DNA from: Microthyrium microscopicum
Taxonomy: Eukaryota
Length of the DNA: 64,000 nt
Assembly: GCA_010405405.1 (NCBI GenBank)
Contig: MU004230.1
Coordinates: 1,522,627-1,586,626, forward strand
Direction of reading: 5' to 3'
Positions within the stretch are counted from its first letter, which is position 1, and every line of letters starts with the position of its first letter. A program made the translations under genes and the position numbers. Positions 21,801-39,541 of this stretch are shown here, in pieces. The notes below the pieces were generated by a model. It was given only the letters and a program-made list of their open reading frames with translations. It was not told where the DNA came from and searched no databases.

Positions 21801-24082
21801 CTATCGTTCGCCTCTTGACATCTTGTTCACCAGTGCCATGACCGCCACGCCTATCAAAACTACACTCATTGCAGATAAATATGGCGCTGCTTGCACAAGT
21901 TGACCTTGCGCATGCTTCATGGTCGTCCCTCCGTCGCCTGTGCGTGGTAGAAAAGAGTGTGACAGATGGCCATTTGAATAAGAAACTGATTTTGGTTTGA
22001 TGGTTTCGTTGTTGTGATCCGAATAATCAATTTCCCTTGAATGGTTGGCGACTTGATCTGCTTCATCTTCCGTTGAACTATCAAATTGGGAGATTGCTCG
22101 CCCATCTCGCTTCTGGGTCTCACGCTTTCGTTCTTTACGTTCCTGGCGGTCTTGTTCTTCTTTTCGAAGCTTTTGCACCATCTCCATCAAGCCCACTTTC
22201 TCTTTCCGTTCCTCATCACGCTCTTTCTCGGCATTCTCCTTCTCTAGTCTCCACTTCTCAGCCATTTCCTTCACTTCTTGGAACTCGACTAACAACAAGT
22301 CCAGCCGTTGTTTTAGCTTGTCAGTGGTAGTTTCTGTGGAAACCTTATTTCCCACATCGGAGCTGGCTTCATCTTCGATAGGTGTTGTTACACCTTCTGA
22401 GCCTGTGAGGTTGGGAGGTCCATTGGCCTTGGAGGTATTTTGTTCTAGTTGCCTTGCTCGGGCCTCAGCGTCTTCTCGTTTCGTTCGCTCTAATACAAGT
22501 AGATCTTCCATCTCCCGGCACCTCCTGCTTTGGCTTTCTAGCTCTTTCTTGGTTAACGCCAATGCTTCAGAAAGACTCGCGAATTGTGACACTGTATTGC
22601 TATCCAATCTGAGGGAGCCAGATGAAGACCCATTAGGTAACTTTGGTCGTTCCGTATCTGACCGTTTTAGGCCTGAAAGGTTTCCAGATAGTTCGGGCTT
22701 TTCAGGAAGCGGAGCTTGTGGCGGAGGATTTGGTGGGTCGCAAAATCGTGGTTTTAAAGGTGGATCCGTGAAAGAAACCGGTGGTTTTCTTGAATCGACG
22801 GGTGATCCAGGACCTCCTGGTGCGGGAAGTGATGGCTCCTTTGACGGGGGTGGTTGAGTTGCATTTAGCAGAGAGTCAAGAAATTGACTTGATCGTTGTA
22901 GTTCAGTAGCCTGTTGTTGGGCCAATTTGTATTCAACCTTTAGGTTTATTAGATACATTCCGAACGTAAATGGTGAAAACTTACAGTTAAGCGTTTGATA
23001 ACGGCATCCATATTAGGTGGCTGCAGGAAAAATGGAGGCCTTTGAGGAGGTGCATTATTAGGTATAGAACCTGGAACGTTGCTCATCTGATTTCGCATGG
23101 GCATCAGATCGCTCTGACCTGATTTTCGCCGCATGTGACCCATTGCTTGCATCATTTGAGCTTGATGGCTATTTGGATCCATCTCACTACCAATGTTGAG
23201 ATCAATGAGTGCATTTGAGCTCATAAATCCGGCATGCTCAACTCTCGCAGCTACTTTATGGTGAACAACAGTCTTCTGGTCCTCGCTAACAATATCGATG
23301 CCCAACTCAAGCATATCTTGATCTCTAAGCTCATGAGGGTCGGAATCTTTGTTCTCTTGCGACAATCGGTGACCATTGACAAACGTGCCGTTTGAAGATT
23401 TGATATCTCTTATCCATATTTTGCCATTCCTGTCTGCCCATACTTCGGCATGTGATCTGGACAAGACTTTTGAGTCAAAATAGCCATTGTATTGGGTAGG
23501 GAGGCTTTTGGCGTTTGTCTGCCTGCCGATCTTAATGACATCTGGAAAAAAAGGAACGGTAATAGTTTTGCGCTCGAATGTTCCATTCATAGGCGTGAGA
23601 TAGAGAACTGGGGTAGTCTCATTAACAGTACTCCTCACTCCATTAGTCTGTGAGATTGACTGGTTCTGATTCAAAACTGGTCCAGGGGCTTGAAGTGCTG
23701 ATATTGCCGAGGCAGCTGATGGTCCAGAGGAAGATGTCATTGACTGTGTTCGCGCGGTTGATATACCGGCTGTGGGTTCCGCTTTGGCCATCGGCCATTG
23801 ATATCTAGATGGCCGTTTTCTTGCCTGTGAATCAGCGCTAGAGGCCGAGTTTTGTGGTACTGATCCAGTTGAGGAAACAGAAGCTGTAGAGGTGGAGGAA
23901 GCGACAGAAGATAGCGAAGACGAGGAATTTGATCTTGTTGCGGTTTTTCTGGGTTGCATGAGCATTCTCGACACTTCGTCGGCACTCATGGCAGGTATTC
24001 CGTTAGGTGGAGGGTTGGAGGAACCCCATGCCGATCTAGTGTTGAGATTCTGAAAATTCGGGGGAGGGGCAACAGCCGTCAT
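21801..24082 (-). CDS. VPS64: FHA-domain, coiled-coil, tail-anchored protein Vps64/Far9 (SLMAP/HAM-4/PRO45; STRIPAK component)
   Basis: FHA motifs IKIGRQTN, FDSKVLSRSHAE and DIKSSNGTFVNG; coiled coils; C-terminal TM (PYLSAMSVVLIGVAVMALVN). A 47-nt intron at 22938-22984 joins the two ORF-track segments. Confidence 0.9.
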
Positions 24083-25402
24083 GAAGAAGGCGGTTGAGTG
24101 TTGACAAGTAGCGCGGTTTGTGGTGATGATAGTAAATGTATGTCTCCAGAAAACGCGTCACTCCAATGAAAAGGTGACGTGCAGTCAAAACTGGCAACAA
24201 ATGACAATGACGACCAATATGGGCCAGCTAATCACATCCAAAGTATCAATCGCCGTAGGTAATAAAGGGAGCGGTGTAGAAGAAGCAATGGGGCGGCTTG
24301 TATAGAGTGACGAGTGTCGTGTGCTGGGGTTGGAGGGTGCAAGTGCAACGTCGAAGGGCGAGGTGACAAACGGCGGGTGGATGAACGGGAGTAACAAGAG
24401 CTGGCTATGCGAACCTCGGAGGGAGATGCAGGGAGGTAAGGGTGTTTGCAGATGGGTGAAGGCGAGGGTAGGGTGGTCGGGGATGAAGATGGAGAAGAAA
24501 AAGGATGCGATGATCAGTAAAGTGAAGTTGAGAAGCGTGGTGGTGTGGATGGAAGAGTGCCAAGACCCAAGATTTGTTGAGGAAACAGCGACCCAGAATG
24601 CAGGCAGGCACGGCAGAAACTCCAGGGCGGCGCCTACTTTGAAGGGAAGGAAGCCGGCCTGTGCATTCGTTCCTGCCAGTCTTCCCCTCAGCCGCCTCTG
24701 TCCTTCCACTGGCTAATTGGGAGCCGCTGGAATCTGATAGTGCACCACCAAATCTGTCCCAATTTCTCCTTGAAGATGGAGAGCCTTGTTCCTGTAGACT
24801 TGCACAAACTGCAATCTCGAGATAGAAGTGTGTTTGGGATGACAATGTATTATGCTCCGTTTGTCTGGTTTGACCTATGGTTCATTGGATCAGACAGTGT
24901 TCGACTACTGCAATGACAAAGCCTTTTTCTCCAGTCGCGCTTGTCCACATGCCGTATGTCGGCTGCCAGCGGCCACTTGACAAAATAGTGGATCATGTAC
25001 ATCAACTGCTTTTGGTGTTCACTGAAACTGCAAAAGGAGACCACCAAACCGTAAACGATATCGGATATTTTGTCTACTTTTCAGATGAAACATGCGAAAA
25101 TAAATCTCCATATATCTTGCTATAAACGTGGGCATCAAGGTGCCCACAAATTTATCTTATTACTTCTTTCTCAGCTTAGAGTAATGAAGCATCTACAGTA
25201 GAAGATGAGATGGAAGTAGCAAGATTACATAACCTTGTAAAACAAGCTAGCTTAGAGTGCTGCGTAATTACACTCCCAACCTGGCTAGCTCATCTCCTCA
25301 CCACTTCATGCTCTCAAAAGCTCCGAAGCTGCTTTTATTCTTTGCGCAAAAGCTGTAAATAACCTCATCAGCTACTTCATTACTGAGTAAACTCCTTCAA
25401 CC

Positions 25403-25859
25403 ATGCCGCCTATGCCAGTCGGCCAAGGCCAACCACAAGGCCAAAGTACCATGCAGAAATGTATGGCATCTTACCATCATCCGGTGCATCTGCTAACAAC
25501 GCAACAGTAACGATGGGAGCTACCATGGGTGGCAGTACGTCTCTTACAAGCCTACATCGACTCGTATATTAGCTAACGCATACTTCCCAGCCGTCGGACT
25601 GATTCTCGGATTCATATACGGCAGCTACGCGATCATAAAATTCGGCCCGGGTCCTAATGGAATGATGCGAACAATGGGGCAATACATGATGGGAAGTTCG
25701 GCTACATTTGGCTTTTTCATGGCCATTGGACATACGATTCGGACGGATTCCCATCGAGCGGCGTTTGAGCGATTCAGACATGCGGAGCGACGACCTATCA
25801 TGCTTCCTGCCGATTTCAAATACCCGGATGATCAACGGTCGAAAGCAGACAAGTCGTAA
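25403..25859 (+). CDS. MGR2: Mgr2/Romo1 mitochondrial TIM23-associated protein (2 introns)
   Basis: Spliced product reads ...TMGATMGG.VGLILGFIYG...GPGPNGMMRTMGQYMMGSSATFGFFMAIGHTIR, the Romo1 signature. Introns at ~25461-25507 and ~25536-25590. Confidence 0.88.
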
Positions 25860-26333
25860 CCATATTGGAATGATTGAGAAGGAAACAATGAGAAGAGATG
25901 ATAACAGCAGACCAATGAAGGTTGCTGGGCAAGAGTGACCAGTGTATTATAATGAGGAAGGCTACGCATACAAAGCATGATGCGAAAGTCTGGAATTAAA
26001 AGTAGCCAGAATGAGCCTAAAAGATATTGCAGCAAATCTATACCCATCCATTACTCTAATATTGCTTGGTATCAGTTGAATATACACTATATACAAGTTG
26101 TGCAAGGGGATCATTGTGATATTGAGAGGCATATTTGCCTTCTTTTCTCCTGCCATGGTCAGGCATCCTCTCTTCATCAATGCATACCTCAATTGCCATT
26201 CGTGCCGTTAGGATTGTTACTTTCCAGAAGCTAGCGCCCTCTGTTCGACAAGGTAAACCCAATGTCGAGTCTAGACTGTTCCCGTGTCATCTGAGATTCG
26301 TCGTGCTATCTTCGTCCTGTAGCAAAGTATTCT

Positions 26334-27116
26334 TCAAGAATTATCTTCTTCCATCTCAGCAATCCTAACCATCTCATCCCTCTCTGCTCCCTCCACATCC
26401 TCAACACCATCAACGCCATCCAACCTTCTCGCCAACACACCTACAAGCCTCCTCCCTACGCCCTCAACATCCACCCCTTCAACACCCTCACCCACCAAAC
26501 TCGCACTCCTCATCCCCTCAATCCCACACGCCACAATCCGATCAAACCAGCCCAAATCAGTTGCCACATTCAGCCCCACCCCATGCACCGTCACGTGTCT
26601 CCTCATATGCACACCCACCGCCGCAATCTTCCTCTCCTCACCTTTCTCCCCCGTCCACACGCCCACATCATCCGTCGTATACGCCCTCACCCCATACGCT
26701 TTACAAGTCTCAATAACCGCATCCTCCAACAACCGCACATAACACCTTGGACTCAGCCCATGCGCACGTAAATCTAGAATTGGATACGCAACAAGTTGGC
26801 CCGGCCCATGAAACGTAGTCTGGCCGCCGCGCGGAGCATAGTAGAAGTCGGCGCCAGTGGCGCGTAGTTCAGCGATGGCATTTGGTGTGAGACGATTGGT
26901 GGATCGCAGGCCGGCGGTGTAGGTTGGAGGAGGGGAGAAGGTGAGGATTGTTGGGGCGGGCGGCGTGGAGGGCGAGTGAGTGTTGGGATGGGCGCCAAGG
27001 GTGCGTTGTGAGAGGGCGGCTTTGTGGGCGAGTTGGCGGGAGACGATTTGGGATTGTATGTGCGAGGCGGTTGGGTAGGAGAGGAGAGTTGGGATGTGGA
27101 TGTGTCGGAGTTTCAT
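26334..27116 (-). CDS. LIP2: Lipoyl(octanoyl) transferase LipB
   Basis: LipB motifs PTYTAG, RGGQTTFHGPGQLVAYPILDL, RKIAAVG, HGVGLN and FDRIVACGI. Confidence 0.93.
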   Translation of the reverse strand: MKLRHIHIPTLLSYPTASHIQSQIVSRQLAHKAALSQRTLGAHPNTHSPSTPPAPTILTFSPPPTYTAGLRSTNRLTPNAIAELRATGADFYYAPRGGQTTFHGPGQLVAYPILDLRAHGLSPRCYVRLLEDAVIETCKAYGVRAYTTDDVGVWTGEKGEERKIAAVGVHMRRHVTVHGVGLNVATDLGWFDRIVACGIEGMRSASLVGEGVEGVDVEGVGRRLVGVLARRLDGVDGVEDVEGAERDEMVRIAEMEEDNS

Positions 27117-27659
27117 GATGGTGGATGTGTGGTTGGTGGCGACGGTGGGTTAGATGGGTGGGTTCGAGAGTTGGGAGTTGGGAGGATACATTATGCTTAT
27201 GAAAGAGAACAAGAGAAAATCATGGTAAATTTGGCATGTTGGTGGTTTGTTGGTCGAGCACTCGAGATGGGTTGAAGGTCCAATGCCGTTGTCTGGAGGA
27301 AGAAGTTGAGTTGGTTGGCTGGCCAATCAGGTCGCTTGTCAAGCACGCATAAGGCTGAAAGACCTGAATGCTGTTGGGTTGGTTATGCACTCTTCCTGCT
27401 GAAAATAGTATGAGCTCATGTAAGGTACAGACACTTCCATAATTTCCGGATCAAACAGGTCTCATTTTAATACTATTCTGATTGGTGATATCGAGATACA
27501 AGTCGTATATAAGAATGTCGCCAAGTCTCTCAAATGCTGTTTTCAACAACCAGCTTCTCAACCTCCAGCGAAAACATACAACGATATACCTTCACTCATT
27601 ACGCTCATTAAGTTCTCAGTCTTTCCAATCTTTCCAGCAAATCTTCACAGTCCATCACC

Positions 27660-28342
27660 ATGAAGTCAATCATCAGCATTGTGATCCTCACTGTCCTGAC
27701 CGGCAGCATTCAAGCAGCGCCCTGTTCAAGCGAAACGACAGGGGCAGCTCCATCAGGTGTTTTTCCCTCCAGTATCAACCCGCCTATCTCCAAAGTTACA
27801 GGAATGCACACGGGCTATGGACCGATGCAGACTTCGGAACCATGGACGCACTCCTTGCAGCCTTCCGGTTACGGGCACTCCAAGAAGGCTCACCCTTACT
27901 ACAAGTCAGCAGAAGCTCATTGCGATATGGATAAATCTAAAGGGCCTGAAGAGAGCAAGAGCATGCACCACAAAACTCATTCGGCTTCAGGCCATCATAA
28001 GCCAAGTGCCAGTGCTGAGTCTGGTGCTATGCCCGCGCCGACTACCAGTGTCGAGTCTGGTGCTATGCCTGCGCCGACTGCCAGTGCAAGTGCTGTAAGT
28101 CTCTCTTCTTAAGATGTTCAACTTCTAGACTTGAGTCACTAACTACCCTTCACCAGTCGCCTGAGCCATACCAGAGCCTAGCAGGAGCGGAGCCGTCTAA
28201 CTCATATACATCCACCGTCGTTGTCACCACGTACAGTACAGCCACCGCTACCGCTTTGGTTGAAAGTGTCTCACCGGCTGCTCCTGCAGCCTCGACCATG
28301 TCCACTTCTGTGGTGCCTATTATACCTGTGTCTGTTGTCTGA
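27660..28342 (+). CDS. Secreted Ser/Thr/Ala/Pro-rich protein (possibly cell-wall associated)
   Basis: Signal peptide MKSIISIVILTVLTGSIQAAP. Duplicated 12-aa unit containing ESGAMPAPT. An intron at ~28095-28156 (GTAAGT...ACTAAC...CAG) continues into a Thr-rich exon. Confidence 0.72.
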
Positions 28343-29085
28343 CTAGTGTATGCGACAGGTATACCTACTACCGCTTCGATGTTCAACCTATAGGTTGTCA
28401 ACACATAGTCCTCGGACAGAAATGAGATGTCAGGGTAGCGAAATCGGCTAAGTTGTGCTGGAGTTTATGGAATGCTCTTTTCAAATTGCTTCTCTACGCA
28501 TGTTTGTAGTTTAGATGGGTCCTAGAATAAAAACAAATTACTGAACATTGTGTTCAATCTCAGTCTGGAAGCTCTGATTTGTGTCGTATTCATTCCACAT
28601 AAAATACCCTACGTATTCTATGGCAATAAAAACACTCGATGATAAGGAAGTAAATAAATAGTAGATATCGTGGCCGACATCAAAAATTGGAAACTTATCT
28701 TGAAGTTAAGGGGTTGCCGGTTTATCGCAGGTACTGATATGCTGATACCGGTATATCTATCGAATGGGACAAGGAAGACAAAGTCTAGTAAACATTTTGT
28801 AAAACGTGGTCGGAAAAGAGCTTAGCGACTATTAACTTAGGAACATTAGGAAGTCTGGTAGCGTACCAAGGCACAGCCAAGTTTATGAACCCGTGCAAGC
28901 GCGTTGCATCTTAGGTAAAGTGGGCGGGCATAGGGCATTTTCCATTCGCTGTACTTTTGGATTTTCCATCCCAACTTCATCATAGATCGCAGAAAAGCAT
29001 CTTCACTGTAGTTTGCCATCCGTTACATACAACCATCCATGATAAAAGAGCTGGGAACTACTCGGAAGAAGCTTTTGGCACGGCC

Positions 29086-30668
29086 ATGATATCTACCATC
29101 TATGGAATCTTTGCTTTAATTTTCATCAACCAAGTTTGCTGCGCAAGCTTTCGGGAACTTCCAGACGTACCAAAGTCCAAATGGATACGTAGAGAGGAAG
29201 CACCGGCGGGTAGCAAAGCCACCCGGCTATTCGTCTCATCATACGAAGGAACTGTGACGACTGTGGAGCTCACACTATCTGATGCCTCTACCTTTTCAAA
29301 GCACCCTGCCTTGACGATACACAAAACGGCTTCCAACGAGGACTGTGGAGACTCGCCAACCTGGTTAAGCTGGGATTCGAAGCGTCGAACTCTGTACTGC
29401 TTGAATGAACAAATTGACACCTCGAAGGGTCGTGCTGCCACGCTGACGCAGTATAACGTGGGCTCGGATGGTCAATTCAGTGATAATAAAATTCGACCAA
29501 CGTTTGCTGGAGGACCTGTACATGGAGTAGTTTTCCACCCGATAGGAGAAGATGAAGAAGATGAGCCATCTTATGCTGTTGCTCATTATGCACCTGGTTA
29601 TTTCACGAGCTACGATCCTCACTCTCGGGTTCGTGGACGTCTCAGTTTAGATGTTGGGCCTCCTGGACCTACGGAAAGGCAGCAAGAGCTTGTATCAAGT
29701 GGACATCAAATCATATTAGATCCTGGAAAGCAAGGTGAGCTGACTTCGGATTCGCACGATGAACATACCACGGCATCACTCATGAGCAACGAAAGTTCCA
29801 CACTGACAAAGAACAGGACAGGTACTTGTACCGGATCTAAGTCAAGATTTGGTGCATATATTCCAATGCACTCGGGCTGATTGCTGGCGGAAGGGGACTG
29901 TGGCAATGCCTCCTGGTACTGGACCTAGACACGGTACCTTCTGGATCAGTCCAGATCGCAAGAAAACGTTCTTCTTTATTGGCGGTGAAATCTCCAATTT
30001 GATCGAAGGATACTCAGTGGATCGATCTGAGGACGGTAGTTTGAAGTTCACGCATGTATCGACCACCAATGCTGTTCAGCTTCCAATGCAAGAAGAATTT
30101 GCCTTGGCTGAGATTGCAGTTTCCGTAAGTGACACTCTTGACTCAACCTGATCGAAAGAAGAATCTCACGTCGTGCTCTAGCCCGACAATGCCTTCCTGA
30201 TAGTGTCAAATCGAGGCAATAATGCCACCAGTGTCGATGTTTGCGAGGTTACTGGACCGCGATATGCTTGCGAATCAGCCCAGTCTGACACGATCGTGAC
30301 CTTTGCCCTTAACGGAACTGGTGTGTTGACGTCTGGACAGACGTGGCCATCAGGTGGTGTAGCTCCTCGGGCGTTTGCATTAAATCGAAAGGGCGATATC
30401 ATGGCTGTTGGTACAAAAGCTGGTGAGTCTGCTCTTATCCAACAACGCCAGTGAATGTTAACCTTCCCAAGGCCTTGTTCTGCTGGAGCGCAACGTGTCA
30501 ACTGGCAAGCTGGGCCAGATTATGGCGGATCTCGACTTTGATGATCAAGTAACCGGGGTGGTTTGGGATGATTCTTTGATGAATTATCCATCTCGGGCTT
30601 CGAAAGTACCAGCATACCAGCGCTTTTGGCAGAGGTATCTCACTAAGCGATTAAGACGCGATTGGTGA
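29086..30668 (+). CDS. Secreted lactonase-family beta-propeller (6-phosphogluconolactonase / carboxymuconate cyclase-like); multi-exon
   Basis: Signal-like N-terminus. Motifs LFVSSYEG, SPTWL...LYCLNE, GPVH, HQIILDP, GTGPRHGTF, PRAFALN and VVWD. Three introns. Confidence 0.82.
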
Positions 30669-31132
30669 TTTAACTGAGTATTATCCCTTGTCTTCTGGAA
30701 GTAGATTGAATGATTGAAACGCCATTTTCACAAATCCACTGGAAATTGAAGTGTTCCGCAAATTGATTTGATAGTAAGCGGAATCGCGTTATAAATCAAA
30801 TATTCGTCGAGAAAAGGAGAGGTTGGTGGATGGGAGCTGGAGGATTTAAGGAAGGAACAATGAAGCCCTGCGGCAAGTTCCGCGAACGACTCCCTGTGCC
30901 TTCAAATTGATTGACAAGACACGTTCGCTTTCTCAACCATCCCGACCACGCTCACTTTTCAGCCCATCCCATCCAACAAACCCCTCCTCAGAGAGTGAAT
31001 ATATCGCCTTGCCTGATTGACCTTCTACGGTATTCACTTCAGTCTCGTTTGAAATCTTTATAGCCAAAGCCTGGCCTCTTTCTCTACCCGTCCTTCGTCT
31101 GCCTAACCTACGATCAACCCCTAATCATCAAA

Positions 31133-31657
31133 ATGTCTAGAATCAGCATTCCCTTAGACGTCGTCACGTCGCGCCTCAATTTCTCAGAGCGATTCGGATC
31201 TGTCAGTAATATACGATCCAACTTCGGAAACTTTCGATCCCTTTACGAGTTCTTTGATGTAAAGCGCATCTCCAAGCCTGCGAACCTCGCGGAAACTCAA
31301 AGCCGCCTGAACTACAACCTGTCATACTTCTCATCCAATTATGCCGCCATCTTTGCGATGCTGGGTATTTACGCCCTACTAAACAATTGGTGGCTCCTCT
31401 TTTTCATTGCCCTCCTCGTTGGCGGCATGTACGGCATTGGTAGACTACAAGGCAACGACCTAGTTATTGGCAACTGGCATGCAACAACCACACAACTTTA
31501 CACCACCCTTGTAATCATTGGCGTTCCTGTCTTCTTCATGTCATCACCCTTCATGACCGTTTTCTGGCTCCTTGGATCTAGTGCATTGGTCATTCTCGGT
31601 CATGCCGCCTTTTTGGACAAACCCATTGAGTCGGCTTTTTCCGAGGAGGCGGTCTGA
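31133..31657 (+). CDS. YIP3: Prenylated Rab acceptor 1 (PRA1/Yip3)
   Basis: PRA1 motifs SRLNYNLSYFSSNYA and VILGHAAF, with hydrophobic hairpins. Confidence 0.93.
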   Translation: MSRISIPLDVVTSRLNFSERFGSVSNIRSNFGNFRSLYEFFDVKRISKPANLAETQSRLNYNLSYFSSNYAAIFAMLGIYALLNNWWLLFFIALLVGGMYGIGRLQGNDLVIGNWHATTTQLYTTLVIIGVPVFFMSSPFMTVFWLLGSSALVILGHAAFLDKPIESAFSEEAV

Positions 31658-32394
31658 GAGGTGTTCGGCCGCGAGCTCCATACGCGAAGCCCCGCCGGCG
31701 GGGAAGATCACCTTGGGACGATAATGGGTATTCTAGACTGCAAGAATTGAATAGCGACGAAGACGAAGATTACAATCGCGAATTGGTGCGCAGACGACGG
31801 AGTGGGGTGGTTCCAGACAGGCTATATTTTACGGACGAACTGAATGCGCTTCAATATCAGGTACGCGAAGACGAGGAGGAGGATGACGAAAGCTCGAGCG
31901 AGGCGAGCTCCGAGGATATCGATATTGAGGAAGTTGCGCGCAATGCCATTGCTAGAATTGAGCGAGCCAAAAGAAAAGGCAAGGAAAATGTCCGCCTCAC
32001 GCACCAGGAGATCGAAGCTTTACAAGTTCGCCGCACACGATCTCGCAGACAAGAAACACCCACCGACTCCCCCGAACGTGATTCACCAACCGGACAGCCG
32101 CGTAAGAGACGTGAGAGGAACACTCGACAGGCCTGGACACGACGAAGGTCGCAGCCCCAATTTTTTTCGGGTACACTGGCACCTGCAACTCGTAGCTCGT
32201 CCAATGTCTCGACTGCCAGTTCCTCAAAGGCCTCTTCAAGGAGACGCAAACCAAGAGAAGATTCGCCGCCACCACCAGCGGAGGACGAAGGGTACTATTT
32301 GACGACTTATAATCCAAGACGAGTTCGTGGCTCGGCTAATCCTGCACATCGGATATCAAGCGCTCCTGCTGCTGGGCCTCCATATCCTTATTAG
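31630..32394 (+). CDS. Met-less 254-codon ORF overlapping the YIP3 3' end in the -1 frame; probable frameshift extension of Yip3
   Basis: Open from 31630 (after TGA at 31627-31629) to TAG at 32392-32394 with no in-frame ATG. Protein-like composition (EEVARNAIARIERAKRKGKENVRLTHQEIEAL). Confidence 0.65.
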   Translation, partial: VGFFRGGGLRGVRPRAPYAKPRRRGRSPWDDNGYSRLQELNSDEDEDYNRELVRRRRSGVVPDRLYFTDELNALQYQVREDEEEDDESSSEASSEDIDIEEVARNAIARIERAKRKGKENVRLTHQEIEALQVRRTRSRRQETPTDSPERDSPTGQPRKRRERNTRQAWTRRRSQPQFFSGTLAPATRSSSNVSTASSSKASSRRRKPREDSPPPPAEDEGYYLTTYNPRRVRGSANPAHRISSAPAAGPPYPY

Positions 32395-32687
32395 TCTTTT
32401 CATTCTCATCCATGTATTTATTGTTTCCGGCGTTCTATTGCAGATAGATGGCATGAAATGCATTTTCAATGAATCGATTACCTATTGAGAATATCCCACT
32501 AGTTGTACAACTATGCTAAGCGCCTAGGTATGCTTTTTGTGACGGTATACCAAAGTGCCTGCTCTCCAATAGCCCGAGCCTACTACCAACAGACCACCAG
32601 TCTCAGCATCGCGTAAAACGATGTCCCAGTGAGGCAGAATGAAATTGCATGTTTACTAAGATTCTCAGAAGTTGATCATACTAGGTG

Positions 32688-33852
32688 CTACATGTTTGAC
32701 CTTACCGGTTCATCATCAACATCATCATACAAGGATCCGCATCGCGCAAATATCCAATTGGCAACATCATCCGCGTACGTCTCCTTATCCGGACTGGGCT
32801 CAGCATGCACTGTACATCGTTAGCATCTATCTCATACCATCGAGGACTATCGTGATACATACACTTATGAAACCAGCCATCGTAAATCTTCAGCTCCTTA
32901 TCGTCCTTGGCGTGTAGTCTTTTATACACGCGCTCTGTGCCAGTGTAGTCGCACACACCGTCTTTATTTCCATGGCTCAGCCATATTCTAGTTTTGCGTC
33001 CTTCGCCTGCAGTTCTGCCAATACTAATCTTACCGGTGTCAAGAGCACTTGCGCGGTCGAGCATGTTGGAAAGACCTTGTAATGTTGCCGTGTCATGGCA
33101 AAGCTCGTCGTCAACAAAGGCTTTTTGCACTGCTGGATCACGACTAAGCAGCTTTTCATCCAGCTTGACTTCCATCTGGCGGCCTGGCAGTATCTTGCCT
33201 GCCAAACGACCTAATGCTACGGTAATAGGATTTGGCTATTATTGTTTAGCTTCACAACCCCCTTCCTCTCCCACAAAGTCATGATGAACATACCTTAGTA
33301 GCCGCATGAAGCGCAATAAACGGCGCCTCCACCAAATATCCTCTGATCCGGATTCTCGTCTGCACCGGCGCATACGACGCCCAACATAGCACTTCTTGGC
33401 CACCCATCGAATGGCCCATGAGGAACATGGGCACATCGCCTTTAGTAGGTAGTTGTTCTTCCACAAACCTGTTGATATCTAGTAGCACCCTCATAGTTGG
33501 GCCGGTGAGGCCGCGCTCGGCAGGCTTGGTCACGGAACGACCCCAGCCGCGTTGATCAAAGGAGCGAACTTCAATGCCTTTGCCGGCGAGTGTGGGGAAA
33601 AAGTCGCCATAGGCATTGCCTGAAGCGGTCAGCGAGGTCCTTAGAACGCATGAGGTTGGTCAGGGCTTACAGTGATCGCTGAAGCCGTGGACAAAGAGAA
33701 GGATGGCTTTGGGTGTGTCCGCAGTCTGGAGTGCGTTAGATTGTGGAACGTTGATGGAAAGAGTGTTGAGAATATACCTTCCAGGTTTTTGTGTAAAGAT
33801 TGATTCCTGCTTCGACGTTCACAACGCCCTCTTCGGTTTTGATATCCGCCAT
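32688..33852 (-). CDS. Alpha/beta-hydrolase, monoacylglycerol lipase (Yju3-like); multi-exon
   Basis: FVHGFSDH, FDQRGWGRS, GHSMGG nucleophile elbow, HGNKDGVC and GWFHKLHAEP. Several short introns. Confidence 0.88.
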
Positions 33853-36800
33853 AATTGCAGGGTGTGCACCTGAATATGGATACTGAGCTTATATATATGA
33901 GCCAAAAATCGCACTTATATTGTAATGAAATGCTGGCACAGAACCATGCGAAGCTAGATATCTGAAAGAAGTAGAAATGTCGTGGCTTCGAGGAGCTGAA
34001 CTGGCCATATATTCACGTGTAAAATGAAGCCGAATCAGATCCTGTAGAGCTTCTAATGAGGACTAGCGCGCTGCAAAACACTAGCTTCATCCCAGATCCT
34101 GGTAAGTATTATGTACCTCTGCTGCGCGTTCTGCCATACCCCAGGCTAGAAAAAAGCTCTAAAAAAGTAGGGCTCGTTCGAGTATGCTGATTGGCTAGTA
34201 TTCGGATGTTCTCCCTTGACAGCCAATAATAAACGCCCTTTGGGTCTGTCGAGAGCGAGGACTGGCAATTTTCCAGCCTGGGTATGGCAGACGGCGCAGC
34301 AGAGGTATGCCCACATTTCCATTTTCTGGTTCTTTGGAACATGGAGCTTTCCTTACATCCCCTAGAATCTATACACATACATCGCGTGCCTATATCAAGA
34401 AAGAGAGCCAGTGATTTGACGAGAATTATTCGCGCGCGGGCGACGTTATTGGCGACAATTTGTAAAGTTCCTCTTCAACAAAGCTAAGCAAGTTTGGGTC
34501 CACTAAGATGGCTTGATAAGGCTGAACAAGGCTGAATACCCAGTTTTTGACCTGCGAGGCTGCTACGTGCAAAAACGTCACGCACAGAGACAAATAGCGA
34601 TAGAATAGTCAAATATATGATCATTAGTTTTTTCTAAGTCTAAAGAAACTCATAAATCCATGCGGCCTTGAACATCATATCTTAGTTCTTTTCATCCATG
34701 TCGATTCGTGAGGTTCGCAAGGTGAGGCAAACCACTCGCAAGCTCCATCCCTCCGTAGCTTTGTTCGTATTATTTTCCGTGGTTTGACCCAGATCCAAAA
34801 AAAAAAAAACAATATTACCCTTAAATACAGGCGTCAATGTGATCTTTGCTGGTGGATCATAGGATGTTCTGCATGTCATCAAAATCCACCTGTGCCATCC
34901 TCTTAGATCCTGGCCAAGAAACTCGACTGTCGCAAATCCTCTGGTCTTGAGGCACTTTTCCTAACTCCGCGATAAAATGGTTGTTCCTTACATGCAAACC
35001 ATCTGTCGATTGGCTGAAGTTCTTGCATATTGATAATCGGTGTCCAAGAACGTCCTCCACCGTTGACAACAACGTGGGGTGGAAAAAGTTTTTCATCTTG
35101 CATTGGGGAGAATTGATCTCCAATGTACAAGAGGGCGACCTCCATCTCGATATAATTAGAATCCTGATGAGGCCGCGCTGTTTGTGGAGCTTGATCGACC
35201 GTGGGGGTTGAGGGTGGGGGCGCCATCGTATAGACGTCCACCTCTACTTCAGTTCCTTGCATTGTTCTCAAACTCCTATTTTGAAAGTAAGTGAAGGCGT
35301 ATGGCTTGGAGTGAAGAAATCTACCAGTATTCTGAAACCTCGTCGTTGTCTTCAGACTTACTGTTGCTGAGTGCTGTCATTACGAGCCACACGCGTCTCA
35401 TGAAACACATTGCTGTGTCTTGAGGTTGAAATTGGTAGAGGAGGCAGAACTTGTATTGTAGGAAAAGGTCTCGCTTTGAGAGTACGAGCTGAATGTTAGA
35501 GTCAAGTCATGAATTTGAGCTTAGGAAAAACTTCTGGATTATATGTCTAAAGTAGAGATTCGTAGAGCCTCAACAAGCATATGTGCGCCCGCCCTAAACG
35601 TCTCCTGAACCTTGAGAATTAGGGTGGGAAGACCACATACTGTGCCTTTGATTCGACAAATGAAAGGCAATGACCAGTGCGAAATCCACGATCAGGGCGT
35701 AGCAACTGGCTTGCAGGATAAATCATGGGCACCAGCTTTCTAGCCAATACTTCACACAGCAGATACAATGTCGGAGCCTGGCAGAAGAAGCTGCTGTGGG
35801 GTTTGTGCAACGTTGGTACTTCCTTCCTCAATACCAGATTGGAGATCGACTTTCACTCGTTCTGGCTTGTCTCGAGCTTGGGGAATACACTGAGAATCAT
35901 ACCGGGGATGCCACGTCAAAAATAAACAAATCCTGAATCATGAAGCTTTGGCTTTCTCACTACATGCAGTAATATATAACCAATGCATTGCAGGTATCAA
36001 GACGCGATTGACTATTGGAACAAGAAAGTTGAAAGAGTAAAGCTAGAGAATAATAGTTCATCGAACTCGCTCCTGCAAATAGGGTCCGTTGGTATCGGTG
36101 TGGATAACGAGAAATGTGCTATAGCACCTCAATCGACCAAAATATCCAAAGAACGTCTAACAAGTAAAGCCATTCAAGAACAAGTAAAGCCATTCAAGAG
36201 CACTTGGCCGTCCACAAGCAGAACCCATAGTTCGGCCACATAAACAGGAACAGGGCCAGTAACGGGCGTTGTGAGGTTACGCCCTGGAAAGGTGTCGTGC
36301 GAGCTCGCCCCTTTTAGCAACGGTACGTGGGGTGGGTGGTATTGATGCAAAGGTTGAGAAATGGATCACAGTCTTCAGGAATATCAGGATGCTCTTCGTC
36401 AGCCATATTGGAAGTATGGCATGACATTCGACTTGCAAGTGAACTTGGTCCCTCCAAAAAAGAAAGTAGATGCATAAGCTTTTGTAGCTTCGTTTTATGC
36501 CACTTGGTATGGATCCAGTGCTCTGTAAGCGCGGGGTTTTGTCGTCTGCTGAACATTGACGTACATCGAGAGTCCGATCGAAAGAAGTGATTGCTTTTCT
36601 TACGTCTTGAACTAAGCCAAAGTTGAACCTTTCAATGCAGCTGGATGTTAAGGAGTACTTTGGTACCTAGTCCCGGAAAACAACTTGAACATATGTGGTA
36701 TTTTCTGAGATCCAAACACGCGGTAGGCACATATTGGTATGTTGATCATTATGGCATTGATCATATCAACCAAATTCCAGATATCTGTGCAAATACCGCC

Positions 36801-37432
36801 GGCGGCGTTTTACTAAATCAAACCAACAGACAGTATTAATACTCGCCGTCGGGATGACATCGAGTTACTGCCCAAACGGCTCCCCAGATATGCTGCATTA
36901 CTTTACACTGTCTTAGGAAGCTCGGCTGCCATTGGATCGTGCACAGTGCATCATGCACGTCGATTCTGCCTTACATCGTCCGAGAAGTCAGAGTGGCCGC
37001 CCTGTCCTCAAATTATCTGCTCCGATAGAAATTGTTTGCTAGGAAGCTATCCTAGAACAAAAACCAGTTCTTGTATGGATGACTCTGAAACAAGAAGGAT
37101 CATGGCTTGCTGAGACAAGGACCAAATGCTTCCAGATGCATGGACTGCCAGGATTCAGGGAGAGTAGGCTGTGATCATCAGCATCGCCGCACATGCTCGA
37201 TATGCTTCAAAAATCCAAAATCAACTAAAGGGCCAGCCAGATTTTTGGAGTCAATTGTGAGTTTTCGATGAATGTATCACACATGTGGTGACAGTATCTA
37301 ATTGATTCCGTGTGATGGATACTTCCTTCCAATCCATTTACACCATATCTCTTCAACCCTCTGGTATCGAACATGGCAGAGTAGCCAAAGCATAATATAA
37401 ATCCAACATCCTCAACCCCACATCTTTCCAAA

Positions 37433-39541
37433 TCACAGCGCTTCCTGTTTTGGGACTATCGGACTTACTTCCTTTTCGTCCCGAGCTGGTGCATGCAGCC
37501 CCTGACCACGCTCCGTATCCTTCGCCTGCGCCTCCGCCACGGCCCCATTTACTTCTGGCTCTAACGGCTGTTGGTGCTGTGGAGTCTCCCTTTCAAACTC
37601 CTCTGAAGTCCGCATACCCTCTGATTCGTTCGGTCTTGGAGGTGGCAGATGGTCCCCATCGCCCTGCGAAAAGGCCCGTCCGCGCTGCTCAAATCCGTGG
37701 GGGTACATGACCTTCATAAGGCGCTCCGTCGTCTGGTTGCGCATATCACGTTCGTCAAGCGGCTCTTGTGTCGATATGACCGACTCGCGGCGCGGCATCA
37801 TTACATCGGACGGCGAGCGCTCGTCCTGCATTTGGCTGGTGCCGCGCGAGTACGCCTCGGGGTTGGAGTAGCTGGGCGACATTGCTGTGCCGCCTTCGCT
37901 GTGACGGGCTCCTTCTTTGCGGGCGTGCACTTTGCGTAGGTTGGCGGCACTGCTTTGGCTGCGCATGTCGGCCTTGCCGTCTTTGCGGATTAGGACGCCG
38001 TCGGCGTTGCGGATGGGTTTGGTGCGTGTCTTCTTGGTGTGGGCATATGGATCTTTGGGTAGGGCGGATATAGGGACTGCGCTGTTGATTGAGTCGCGGC
38101 GATCACTGGCGTATACACTCTCAGTGGTGATGGCATAGTATTGTCCATCTTGCCCCTGTCGCATCATTTGTCCTTGTCCGTCGACTAGAACTTGACTTGC
38201 GGGATGATCTGGCCAGCCGGTTGCCATGGCTGTACGAGTGTCCGGATGGGCGTATTTCCTAGGTCGGCCTCCACGGCCACGTCCTCTGCTCGCGGATGGC
38301 GGTGTGTTACCGGTTGAATGATATGCTGGACCTGATACCGTTCTTTGTACATGTCCATCGTCCATCACGTCTTGTACCTGGGATTGAGGCAGGTATCCAG
38401 ATGTCGATACAGATTCGCCTGATTCGGTTCGGTACCGCACGGGTTCTTGTGCAATTTCTTCAGTCTCTGCTCGAGGTTCTGGACGAGGGCGGGTGTCGAT
38501 AGGTGCAGGAGCAAGTTTCGGTCGTTTAGGCGAACTGTTCATTGTGATATCCGTGTGCGAACGTTTGTTAGTCTGGTTTACAGTAGCCCAACCCGCTGGT
38601 TGCTCGAGTTGATGCGCATGCGGCCGTCTTTCAACGGCCTGAACTTGATGTGGATATTGAGGCGCCAATCTAGGTGGTTGCTGCTGTTGTTGTTGTTGTT
38701 GCTGTTGCTGTTGTTGCTGCTGATGTTGTTGATGTTGTTGATGCTGAAGCTGTGCGATACTAGGAGAAGCTGCTTGTGCTACGGCTACTGATGGTCGATG
38801 AGCTGATGCACTTGGGATGTTCTCCCGGTTTGGGAGAGCACTCGAGAGAGATACATGTTCTTCCACCTTGAAAACCCTTCTTTTCAGTAATTGAATATCC
38901 ATTTCCATGCTATCGACCTTATTAGCCTTCTCCGAGACCGCTGAAAGGTTTCTCGAAAATATTTCCAACGTCTGATCATCTAGCCTTTCGCCCGACGGCA
39001 TGACATTATTTGCCGTGGCGGCCAATTGTTGGCGAAATATGGTAAGCTGGTTGGCGACTTCGGCATTAAGCCGTTCCATGTTTTCGACATGTAAGCGAGA
39101 AACTTGTTGAATTGCTTCTTCTAAGTGCCGAATATGGTCCGTCGTCTTCTTGAGGTCTCTTGCATTCGCTTCCAGTGACGCTCGGTTGAGGTTGACTTGG
39201 GTCTGAATCCTGTCGATGGCTTCGAGTTTGACCTCTATGTGGTTAAAGGATTGAGAATTGACTCGTCCATTTGGCTGATGAATAGGCTGAGAGTGAGTGG
39301 AATGTGTTGTATGGGACGAGGTAGGAATATGTGGTGGATTCTGAACAGCCGAAACTCCAGGCATGGCTCGTCGTTCTTTGTCTGGCGGTGTTTGGTTGCT
39401 TTGTTGCCGATAATCCTCTGTTGTTGTTTCCATACCAATAGACATTGACGCTCTCCAGCCAACTTCAGTACTAATAAGATGATCCCCTGGAGAGTTCTGG
39501 AGTTCACAAACGAGATCCGGGATTGAGTACTTCAAAGCCAC
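37433..39541 (-). CDS. Uncharacterised probable nuclear protein: coiled coil, polyQ, AT-hook-like GRGRGGRPRK and a basic C-terminal motif
   Basis: 702-codon ORF with NLS-like PKRPKL and the motif KPIRNADGVLIRKDGKADMRSQSSAANLRKVHARKE. The true start may be a downstream ATG (~39433-39445). Confidence 0.8.
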   Translation of the reverse strand: MALKYSIPDLVCELQNSPGDHLISTEVGWRASMSIGMETTTEDYRQQSNQTPPDKERRAMPGVSAVQNPPHIPTSSHTTHSTHSQPIHQPNGRVNSQSFNHIEVKLEAIDRIQTQVNLNRASLEANARDLKKTTDHIRHLEEAIQQVSRLHVENMERLNAEVANQLTIFRQQLAATANNVMPSGERLDDQTLEIFSRNLSAVSEKANKVDSMEMDIQLLKRRVFKVEEHVSLSSALPNRENIPSASAHRPSVAVAQAASPSIAQLQHQQHQQHQQQQQQQQQQQQQQQPPRLAPQYPHQVQAVERRPHAHQLEQPAGWATVNQTNKRSHTDITMNSSPKRPKLAPAPIDTRPRPEPRAETEEIAQEPVRYRTESGESVSTSGYLPQSQVQDVMDDGHVQRTVSGPAYHSTGNTPPSASRGRGRGGRPRKYAHPDTRTAMATGWPDHPASQVLVDGQGQMMRQGQDGQYYAITTESVYASDRRDSINSAVPISALPKDPYAHTKKTRTKPIRNADGVLIRKDGKADMRSQSSAANLRKVHARKEGARHSEGGTAMSPSYSNPEAYSRGTSQMQDERSPSDVMMPRRESVISTQEPLDERDMRNQTTERLMKVMYPHGFEQRGRAFSQGDGDHLPPPRPNESEGMRTSEEFERETPQHQQPLEPEVNGAVAEAQAKDTERGQGLHAPARDEKEVSPIVPKQEAL
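38677..38745 (-). repeat. CAA/CAG microsatellite encoding polyglutamine
   Basis: HQQHQQHQQQQQQQQQQQQQQQ within ORF 37433-39541. Confidence 0.9.

Follow-up and report, generated by a model that had tools for sequence, protein, structure and literature searches.

Introduction

The closest described system to the locus reported here is PaYIP3 (Pa_1_8470) of Podospora anserina, a gene with a programmed −1 ribosomal frameshift (Malagnac et al. 2013, PLoS One 8:e73772; PMC3777964). PaYIP3 consists of a YIP3-like 5′ open reading frame (ORF) and a 3′ ORF which lies in the −1 frame and is found only in Pezizomycotina. Its signal is U UUU UCC at codon 170, followed 2 nucleotides (nt) downstream by a pseudoknot with a 3-nt bulge in stem 1. 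The same paper reports that the signal is conserved in Pezizomycotina, that the C-terminal extension is present in all Pezizomycotina examined but two species, and that a +1-frame variant exists in Capnodiales and Ophiostomatales. Here we describe a 64,000-nt stretch of the Microthyrium microscopicum genome (GCA_010405405.1, contig MU004230.1, positions 1,522,627 to 1,586,626, forward strand), which we call the window and whose own numbering we use throughout. It contains a further orthologue of this published recoding site, which is real, already known and adds no new principle.

Several experiments in Podospora support the published case (PMC3777964). Twelve PaYIP3 cDNAs were identical to the gene over the junction, with no splicing or editing, and the long protein was seen as an 88-kDa fusion with green fluorescent protein (GFP) made from the wild-type allele. 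In a yeast dual reporter, frameshifting was approximately 1%, compared with 0.3% for an out-of-frame control. The long form could not complement the deletion by itself, nor was it detected in the fruiting-body centrum. The authors lean towards slippage of a single P-site tRNA, raise the possibility of a trans-acting factor, and present YIP3 as the first case of a cellular eukaryotic gene, not related to retroelements, in which −1 frameshifting lengthens the protein. A passage in the review of Atkins et al. (2016) summarises the case in the same terms, and our literature search on the YIP3 frameshift found no primary study beyond Malagnac et al.

Other frameshifting systems share individual features with YIP3. 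The mammalian genes PEG10/Edr and Ma3 (PNMA) are cellular genes in which a −1 frameshift and a downstream pseudoknot extend the protein, and the Edr pseudoknot also has a 3-nt bulge (PMC3777964). However, these genes are retroelement-derived, with canonical heptamers, tandem slippage and a normal spacer, whereas YIP3 lacks any retroviral signature, its heptamer is non-canonical and its spacer is only 2 nt long (PMC3777964). The coronavirus infectious bronchitis virus (IBV) likewise uses an H-type pseudoknot whose stem 1 is long and GC-rich, but it has a 6-nt spacer, the heptamer U UUA AAC and an efficiency of 10-15% in yeast, and the PaYIP3 pseudoknot failed to substitute for that of IBV (PMC3777964). 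Bacterial insertion sequence (IS) elements may offer an analogy for the single P-site tRNA re-pairing on a U-run that has been proposed for YIP3 (PMC3777964); being prokaryotic and concerning transposase genes, they would resemble it in mechanism alone. When we searched Rfam with the window's YIP3 element, no family reached its gathering score. There were two chance-level matches (E 0.65 and 0.85), and the only match to a frameshift element was flavi_FSE, at chance level (14.1 bits against a gathering score of 43).

The YIP3 locus and its −1-frame ORF

The features of the locus are collected in Table 1. The zero-frame ORF encodes a PRA1 domain (Pfam PF03208, E 5.5e-36; score 123.7 bits, cutoff 30.1) at residues 30-170 and has 531 homologues at E<=1e-10. 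Its closest named homologues are Dothideomycete PRA1 proteins (64-68% identity), which, judged by these matches, places them in the subphylum where the site is reported to be conserved. When 29 YIP3 proteins are aligned, the C-terminal residues E166, A168, F169, E171, E172, A173 and V174 are invariant.

ORF2 overlaps the end of YIP3 by 28 nt. Codon starts fall at 2 mod 3 in ORF1 and at 1 mod 3 in ORF2, which puts ORF2 in the −1 frame. That frame is shut upstream by its own TGA, so any shift is confined to 31630-31657, and the long form would be approximately 420 aa (169 plus 251 residues, or 170 plus 250). A Pfam search found no family for the ORF2 tail. At 54.3%, the G+C content of ORF2 is above that of the whole window (44.5%), as fits coding sequence. 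We rejected the missing ATG as a stand-alone argument: 5 of the 39 stop-to-stop ORFs of at least 150 codons in the window lack one, and this is an intron-bearing genome.

An earlier note on this DNA, made from the sequence alone, had proposed a programmed −1 frameshift that yields a short Yip3 and a long one, and its reading of the layout holds. The 174-aa YIP3 ORF, the 254-codon ATG-free ORF and their 28-nt overlap match the sequence and the ORF list. TTTTTCC at 31636-31642, the loop AGGTG (31659-31663) complementary to CACCT (31709-31713), and the palindrome between them are all present in the sequence. The note was also right to call T TTT TCC an imperfect X XXY YYZ heptamer. Its pairing of GCGGTCTGA (31649-31657) with TCGGCCGC (31665-31672) is sound, but its 6-nt distance from the heptamer is not: with GGAG/CTCC included, the stem begins after 2 nt.

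Table 1. Window coordinates of the YIP3 frameshift locus, its predicted RNA elements and the RNA contig that covers it
Feature	Positions	Strand	Basis and details
RNA contig, run X1 record 4	31013-32656	+	1644 nt, 0 differences, 0 gaps; 5′ leader, both ORFs, 3′ region
YIP3/PRA1 ORF, zero frame (ORF1)	31133-31657	+	ORF list; ATG 31133, TGA 31655-31657, 174 aa
−1-frame TGA	31627-31629	+	Sequence; directly 5′ of the ORF2 opening
−1-frame ORF (ORF2)	31630-32394	+	ORF list; 254 codons stop to stop, no ATG
Shift site T TTT TCC, zero-frame Phe169 and Ser170	31636-31642	+	Sequence
Predicted pseudoknot stem 1	31645-31679	+	Fold −14.4 kcal/mol; starts 2 nt after the heptamer
Predicted pseudoknot stem 2, 5′ strand (AGGTG-T-TC), in the stem-1 loop	31659-31666	+	Complementary to 31706-31713
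Predicted loop-3 GC hairpin (CCCCG-CCGG-CGGGG), CCCCGCCGGCGGGG	31690-31703	+	Fold −9.1 kcal/mol, 5 bp
Predicted pseudoknot stem 2, 3′ strand (GA-T-CACCT)	31706-31713	+	Complementarity, aligned loci

Transcript evidence

A public run labelled "RNA?" (run X1) contains 99% of the sampled words of 31000-32600. In its contigs on 25000-39000, neighbouring genes show 13 joints that look like introns (47-82 nt, with GT..AG or CT..AC ends), so the run is derived from spliced RNA. For depth, it gives one figure per contig. The locus itself is covered by one gapless contig, which means that the T5 run is not a genome-assembly indel and that genome and dominant RNA are colinear over the overlap. The earlier note had named a splice junction or a separate transcription start that supplies ORF2 with an ATG as evidence that would speak against it. 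The run X1 contigs contain no joint between 30471 and 32655, and hence none that does so.

Conservation of the shift site and of the −1 frame

Related YIP3 loci were fetched from metagenome contigs by YIP3 protein alignment, blind to the frameshift site, and the best 80 of 154 confirmed loci were used. The YIP3 stop is present in 79 of the 80 (L022 has none). In all 79, the −1 frame is open downstream of YIP3: in 52 it closes within the locus, after 375-560 codons, and in the remaining 27 it is still open at the locus end. The +1 frame, in contrast, is open for only 8-101 codons after YIP3. No +1-frame YIP3 variant was found among the 79, which says little because the loci are the best 80 of 154 matches.

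The shift site itself hardly varies. With the window included, TTTTTCC is present in 69 of 80 sequences, TTTTTCA in 10 and TTTTTCT in one, always 19 nt before the YIP3 stop, and GCTTTTTC is invariant in all 61 aligned sequences. The overlap shrinks to 21 nt in 16 related loci, where a −1-frame TGA lies just 5′ of GGC TTT TTC, which narrows the shift window across the set to 21 nt containing the U-run. Given that GCUUUUUC is fixed but the seventh heptamer base can be C, A or T, and given a spacer of only 2 nt, we lean towards slippage of the P-site tRNA-Phe alone, which seems to fit somewhat better than tandem slippage. The predicted junction peptide is AFF-RGGG for P-site-only slippage and AFS-RGGG for tandem slippage, so the AFF-RGGG peptide of the earlier note presupposes the former.

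Synonymous variation also collapses at the end of YIP3, over its final 10 codons. For this comparison, 78 sequences were usable (two were dropped), of which 70 are distinct. Mean codon entropy in conserved-residue columns is 1.27 bits upstream (69 columns) and 0.45 bits within the last 12 codons (8 columns), and Ala-7, Phe-6, Glu-4 and Glu-3 each use one codon in all 70 distinct sequences. An overlapping functional element is expected to leave just such a mark.

Downstream of the overlap, the −1 ORF of the related loci evolves as a sequence translated in that frame. Counting from 80 nt past the YIP3 stop in 11 non-overlapping locus pairs, differences at codon positions 1/2/3 number 299/222/889 (chi-square p ~1e-123). 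BLASTP matches the window's tail to the −1 ORF in 58 of the 79 loci (E<=1e-3), the best match having 36% identity over 252 aa (E 1.9e-21), and blocks such as a basic RIxRAxxKGK...L..EE..AL motif are shared. In protein searches, ORF2 yielded two hits with a word-indexed method and 10 at E<=0.001 with a full phmmer scan. Three homologues of the tail (P0001, P0002 and P0123) have E-values of 2e-48 to 1e-31, and the phmmer matches include P0127, a protein with a PRA1 domain. Protein-level searches recover few of its relatives, the tail being too divergent and too low in complexity.

Some of the related −1 ORFs have an early ATG. It is the first one in 20 of the 53 complete −1 ORFs and lies 15 codons past the shift site. 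Among the loci (L001-L080), this ATG, approximately 45 nt past the YIP3 stop, is inside pseudoknot loop 3, in the context ...TATGCCCC....

Downstream RNA structure

The predicted pseudoknot starts with a GC-rich stem 1, in which GGAG and GCGGTC (31645-31654) pair with GGCCGC (31667-31672) and CTCC (31676-31679), leaving a 3-nt bulge (GAG, 31673-31675; GA[A/G/T] across the aligned loci). In the window, this stem can be extended by pairing CTGAG with TTCGG, which leaves the loop AGGTG. Stem 2 has the consensus GGTGGTC/GACCACC in relatives, and the window's version consists of 5 bp, a U·U mismatch and 2 bp. A GC hairpin, CCCC...GGGG in the aligned loci, sits in loop 3.

To score this structure across loci, we aligned 90-nt segments (L034 and L068 were too short and were dropped) and collapsed identical ones, which reduced 78 sequences to 61. 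The scored structure has a stem 1 of 4+6 bp with the bulge, a stem 2 of 7 bp whose partner GACCACC lies approximately 50 nt downstream of the stem-1 loop, and a loop-3 hairpin of 4 bp. Overall, 98.1% of the 1281 pair cells are paired, whereas sliding the partners by 1-3 columns lowers this to 35-61%. Changes on both sides are seen at four pairs, and the observed covariation score was reached by none of 500 shuffles.

Taken by element, all 10 pairs of stem 1 are paired in all 61 sequences, with a compensatory change at pair 18-37 (GC to AU on both sides) in three of them. Stem 2 is 97.5% paired across relatives and has two compensatory pairs (GC to AU in 12 sequences, UA to CG in four), and its outer pair shows one further two-sided change. 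The loop-3 hairpin is 98-99% paired, with one-sided changes only, so covariation does not prove it. The earlier note had advised aligning YIP3 3′ ends across Pezizomycotina, and in the related metagenomic loci the heptamer (TTTTTC[C/A/T]) and the long −1 ORF are indeed kept and the stems covary.

One locus, L033 (1183-1299), has an insertion of approximately 21 nt in the region of the loop-3 hairpin and a stem-1 pair in which GC has become AU by compensatory change. Loop 3 can therefore tolerate large insertions while both stems are kept.

Comparison with PaYIP3 and peculiarities of the window's copy

The window shares with PaYIP3 a PRA1/YIP3 5′ ORF, a Pezizomycotina-only 3′ ORF in the −1 frame and an mRNA which is unspliced across the junction. 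It also shares U_UUU_UCC (at codon 170 in Podospora and codons 169-170 in the window), the 2-nt spacer, the GC-rich stem 1 with its 3-nt bulge and, by prediction, the pseudoknot. The two differ in the length of the long form (approximately 420 aa in the window, 61.6 kDa in Podospora). On the window's side there are also a TGA stop, a 3-nt insertion in the stem-1 loop, the stem-2 mismatch and a longer loop-3 hairpin, and the window's RNA contig shows no 5′-UTR (untranslated region) intron from 31013 onward. The kind of evidence differs as well: the Podospora site is backed by experiment, whereas the window's site is known from its sequence and an RNA contig.

Some of these features set the window apart from its metagenomic relatives too. 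Of the 53 complete tails, its own is the shortest, with 251 aa past the shift site (the others have 380-565 aa, median 452), and ORF2 contains no Met at all. P0001, P0002 and P0123 are similarly short (235-352 aa), are 44-59% identical to the window's tail and have the same C-terminal motif. The 3-nt insertion in the stem-1 loop permits the five additional stem-1 pairs. At stem-2 pair 31-99, the T·T (U·U in RNA) opposition is found in the window alone (one of 61 sequences), the pair being otherwise an invariant G-C, and it arose by changes on both strands. An extra A-T pair at the outer end of stem 2 partly offsets this mismatch, and the loop-3 hairpin is longer, with 5 bp and −9.1 kcal/mol.

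One possible reading of these features is that the window carries a remodelled YIP3 recoding cassette, with a half-length, ATG-free tail, an extended stem 1 and a mismatched stem 2. We regard this as a speculative idea that is rather unlikely to be right. The stimulator in the window may, on that reading, work as an extended bulged hairpin and not as the ancestral pseudoknot.

Proposed mechanism and alternative explanations

We consider it highly probable that the locus is a PaYIP3 orthologue with the published −1 slippage on U_UUU_UCC, stimulated by a bulged pseudoknot and giving 174-aa and ~420-aa forms. Its match to the published features, the RNA contig and the related loci all support the programmed frameshift, with its short and long Yip3, that the earlier note proposed. 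Under this model, a single unspliced mRNA would carry two overlapping ORFs. Most ribosomes would stop at the TGA at 31655-31657 and produce the 174-aa Yip3/PRA1 Rab-GDI (GDP dissociation inhibitor) displacement factor. A minority would slip back one base on U_UUU_UCC (31636-31642), at which point the leading edge of the ribosome would meet the bulged H-type pseudoknot 2 nt downstream. Slipped ribosomes would then read the −1 frame to 32391, giving a long form of approximately 420 aa whose tail would be charged and mostly disordered and include one conserved, helical-looking motif. For M. microscopicum, the slip itself, its efficiency and the number of tRNAs that slip (one or two) are inferred.

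A number of points weigh against this reading. The long protein is known from Podospora alone, and the case here consists of sequence comparison and an RNA contig. Even for PaYIP3, efficiency in yeast is only approximately 1% and the available text ties no Podospora phenotype to the long form (PMC3777964). The heptamer does not follow the canonical X XXY YYZ pattern. A minor spliced or slipped mRNA could escape the contigs, which lose rare variants, and one contig over two ORFs is no strict proof of a single transcript. The structure was hand-drawn from the very alignment on which it was scored and the paired region codes in two frames, both of which inflate pairing and conservation; the scored sequences are, in addition, related to one another. 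The 85-nt region folds no better than shuffled sequence (z = +0.38; 123 of 200 shuffles fold at least as well), and the stem-1 and loop-3 hairpins are only mildly better than shuffles (z of −0.92 and −1.25, respectively). We therefore rejected single-sequence thermodynamics as support. Because such folding gives no signal and ATG-less ORFs are not rare, the case for more than chance rests on the related loci and the RNA contig. Finally, the window's tail is the shortest of the set and its stem 2 is interrupted by the U·U opposition, so the frameshift signal could be weakened in this lineage.

Other explanations would account for part of the evidence. RNA polymerase might at times add one U in the T5 run and so fuse the frames of ORF1 and ORF2, and the element that is invariant in all 61 sequences is indeed a homopolymer run; rare variants of this kind would be invisible in contigs. 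However, five T is short for polymerase slippage, the RNA contig has no insertion or deletion, and a conserved, covarying pseudoknot 2 nt downstream would be left unexplained. The identity of the 12 Podospora cDNAs to their gene (PMC3777964) also speaks against such transcriptional slippage, which we judge very improbable. Independent translation of ORF2, by non-AUG initiation or by reinitiation after YIP3, would instead give a free protein of 25-28 kDa. Some relatives could start at the ATG 15 codons past the shift site (20 of 53), and coding-type evolution shows translation, not fusion. However, the window's ORF2 has no ATG, separate initiation does not require the overlap, heptamer offset and −1 frame that are kept in 79 of 79 loci, and the Podospora product is fusion-sized (88 kDa with GFP; PMC3777964), so we give this explanation very little weight.

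A minor alternative splice that joins the YIP3 body to ORF2 in frame is what many automatic gene models assume, and public databases contain 70 PRA1 proteins of 324-701 aa. For example, P0127 jumps from ...WLIG to FFRGGGL, with its PRA1 match cut at profile position 121 of 143. Judging by the protein sequence, this looks like a false intron introduced to restore the frame, and the fused models as a group look like predictor work-arounds. Such a splice would remove the invariant YIP3 C-terminus, there is no joint at 30471-32655 in the RNA contigs even though 13 nearby introns are visible, and the Podospora cDNAs have no splice there (PMC3777964). We consider it extremely unlikely. It is also conceivable that the signal is decaying, with ORF2 a shortened relic which is no longer reached at a meaningful rate in this lineage. 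The short tail (251 aa versus 380-565) would suit this, as would the U·U mismatch and the 3-nt loop insertion, both found in the window only. Against it, the frame is still open for 254 codons without a stop, the heptamer, spacer, stem 1 and bulge are intact, and the additional A-U pair partly compensates the mismatch. Moreover, the independent short-tailed relatives P0001, P0002 and P0123 keep the motifs and the C-terminus, and we see only a slim chance that decay is the right explanation.

Neighbouring features

Downstream of YIP3, a convergent gene lies on the minus strand at 32655-33778, with five introns in the RNA contigs (CT..AC joints at 32655/32706, 32809/32863, 33235/33294, 33618/33670 and 33725/33778). 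The 3′ ends of this gene and of the YIP3 transcript contig (32656) abut or overlap, and there is an adapter-bearing loose end at 32622. Elsewhere in the window, a second ATG-less stop-to-stop ORF of 266 codons (22057-22857, plus strand) is probably an internal exon of a spliced gene.

Annotation and significance

The precedent that the earlier note named for the Podospora YIP3 homologue is real, and its suspicion that the site might already be known was justified, as the frameshift is published and reported to be conserved across Pezizomycotina (PMC3777964). We recommend annotating the gene with −1 ribosomal slippage at codons 169/170, not as a 174-aa gene alone, and avoiding a spurious intron of the kind present in fused models such as P0127. 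In many Pezizomycotina gene models, PRA1 is fused to the tail. Models of 200-220 aa may be similar, partial work-arounds.

For the gene family, the 79 metagenomic loci widen the comparative support for YIP3 recoding by adding clear marks of an overlapping signal, namely synonymous collapse, compensatory pairs in both stems and a coding-type tail, and the 21-nt shift window could guide mutagenesis. If the window's copy is a remodelled cassette and frameshifting persists in it, then M. microscopicum would provide a natural experiment, bearing on the structural part that is required or, alternatively, on whether a trans-acting factor reads the conserved bulge.

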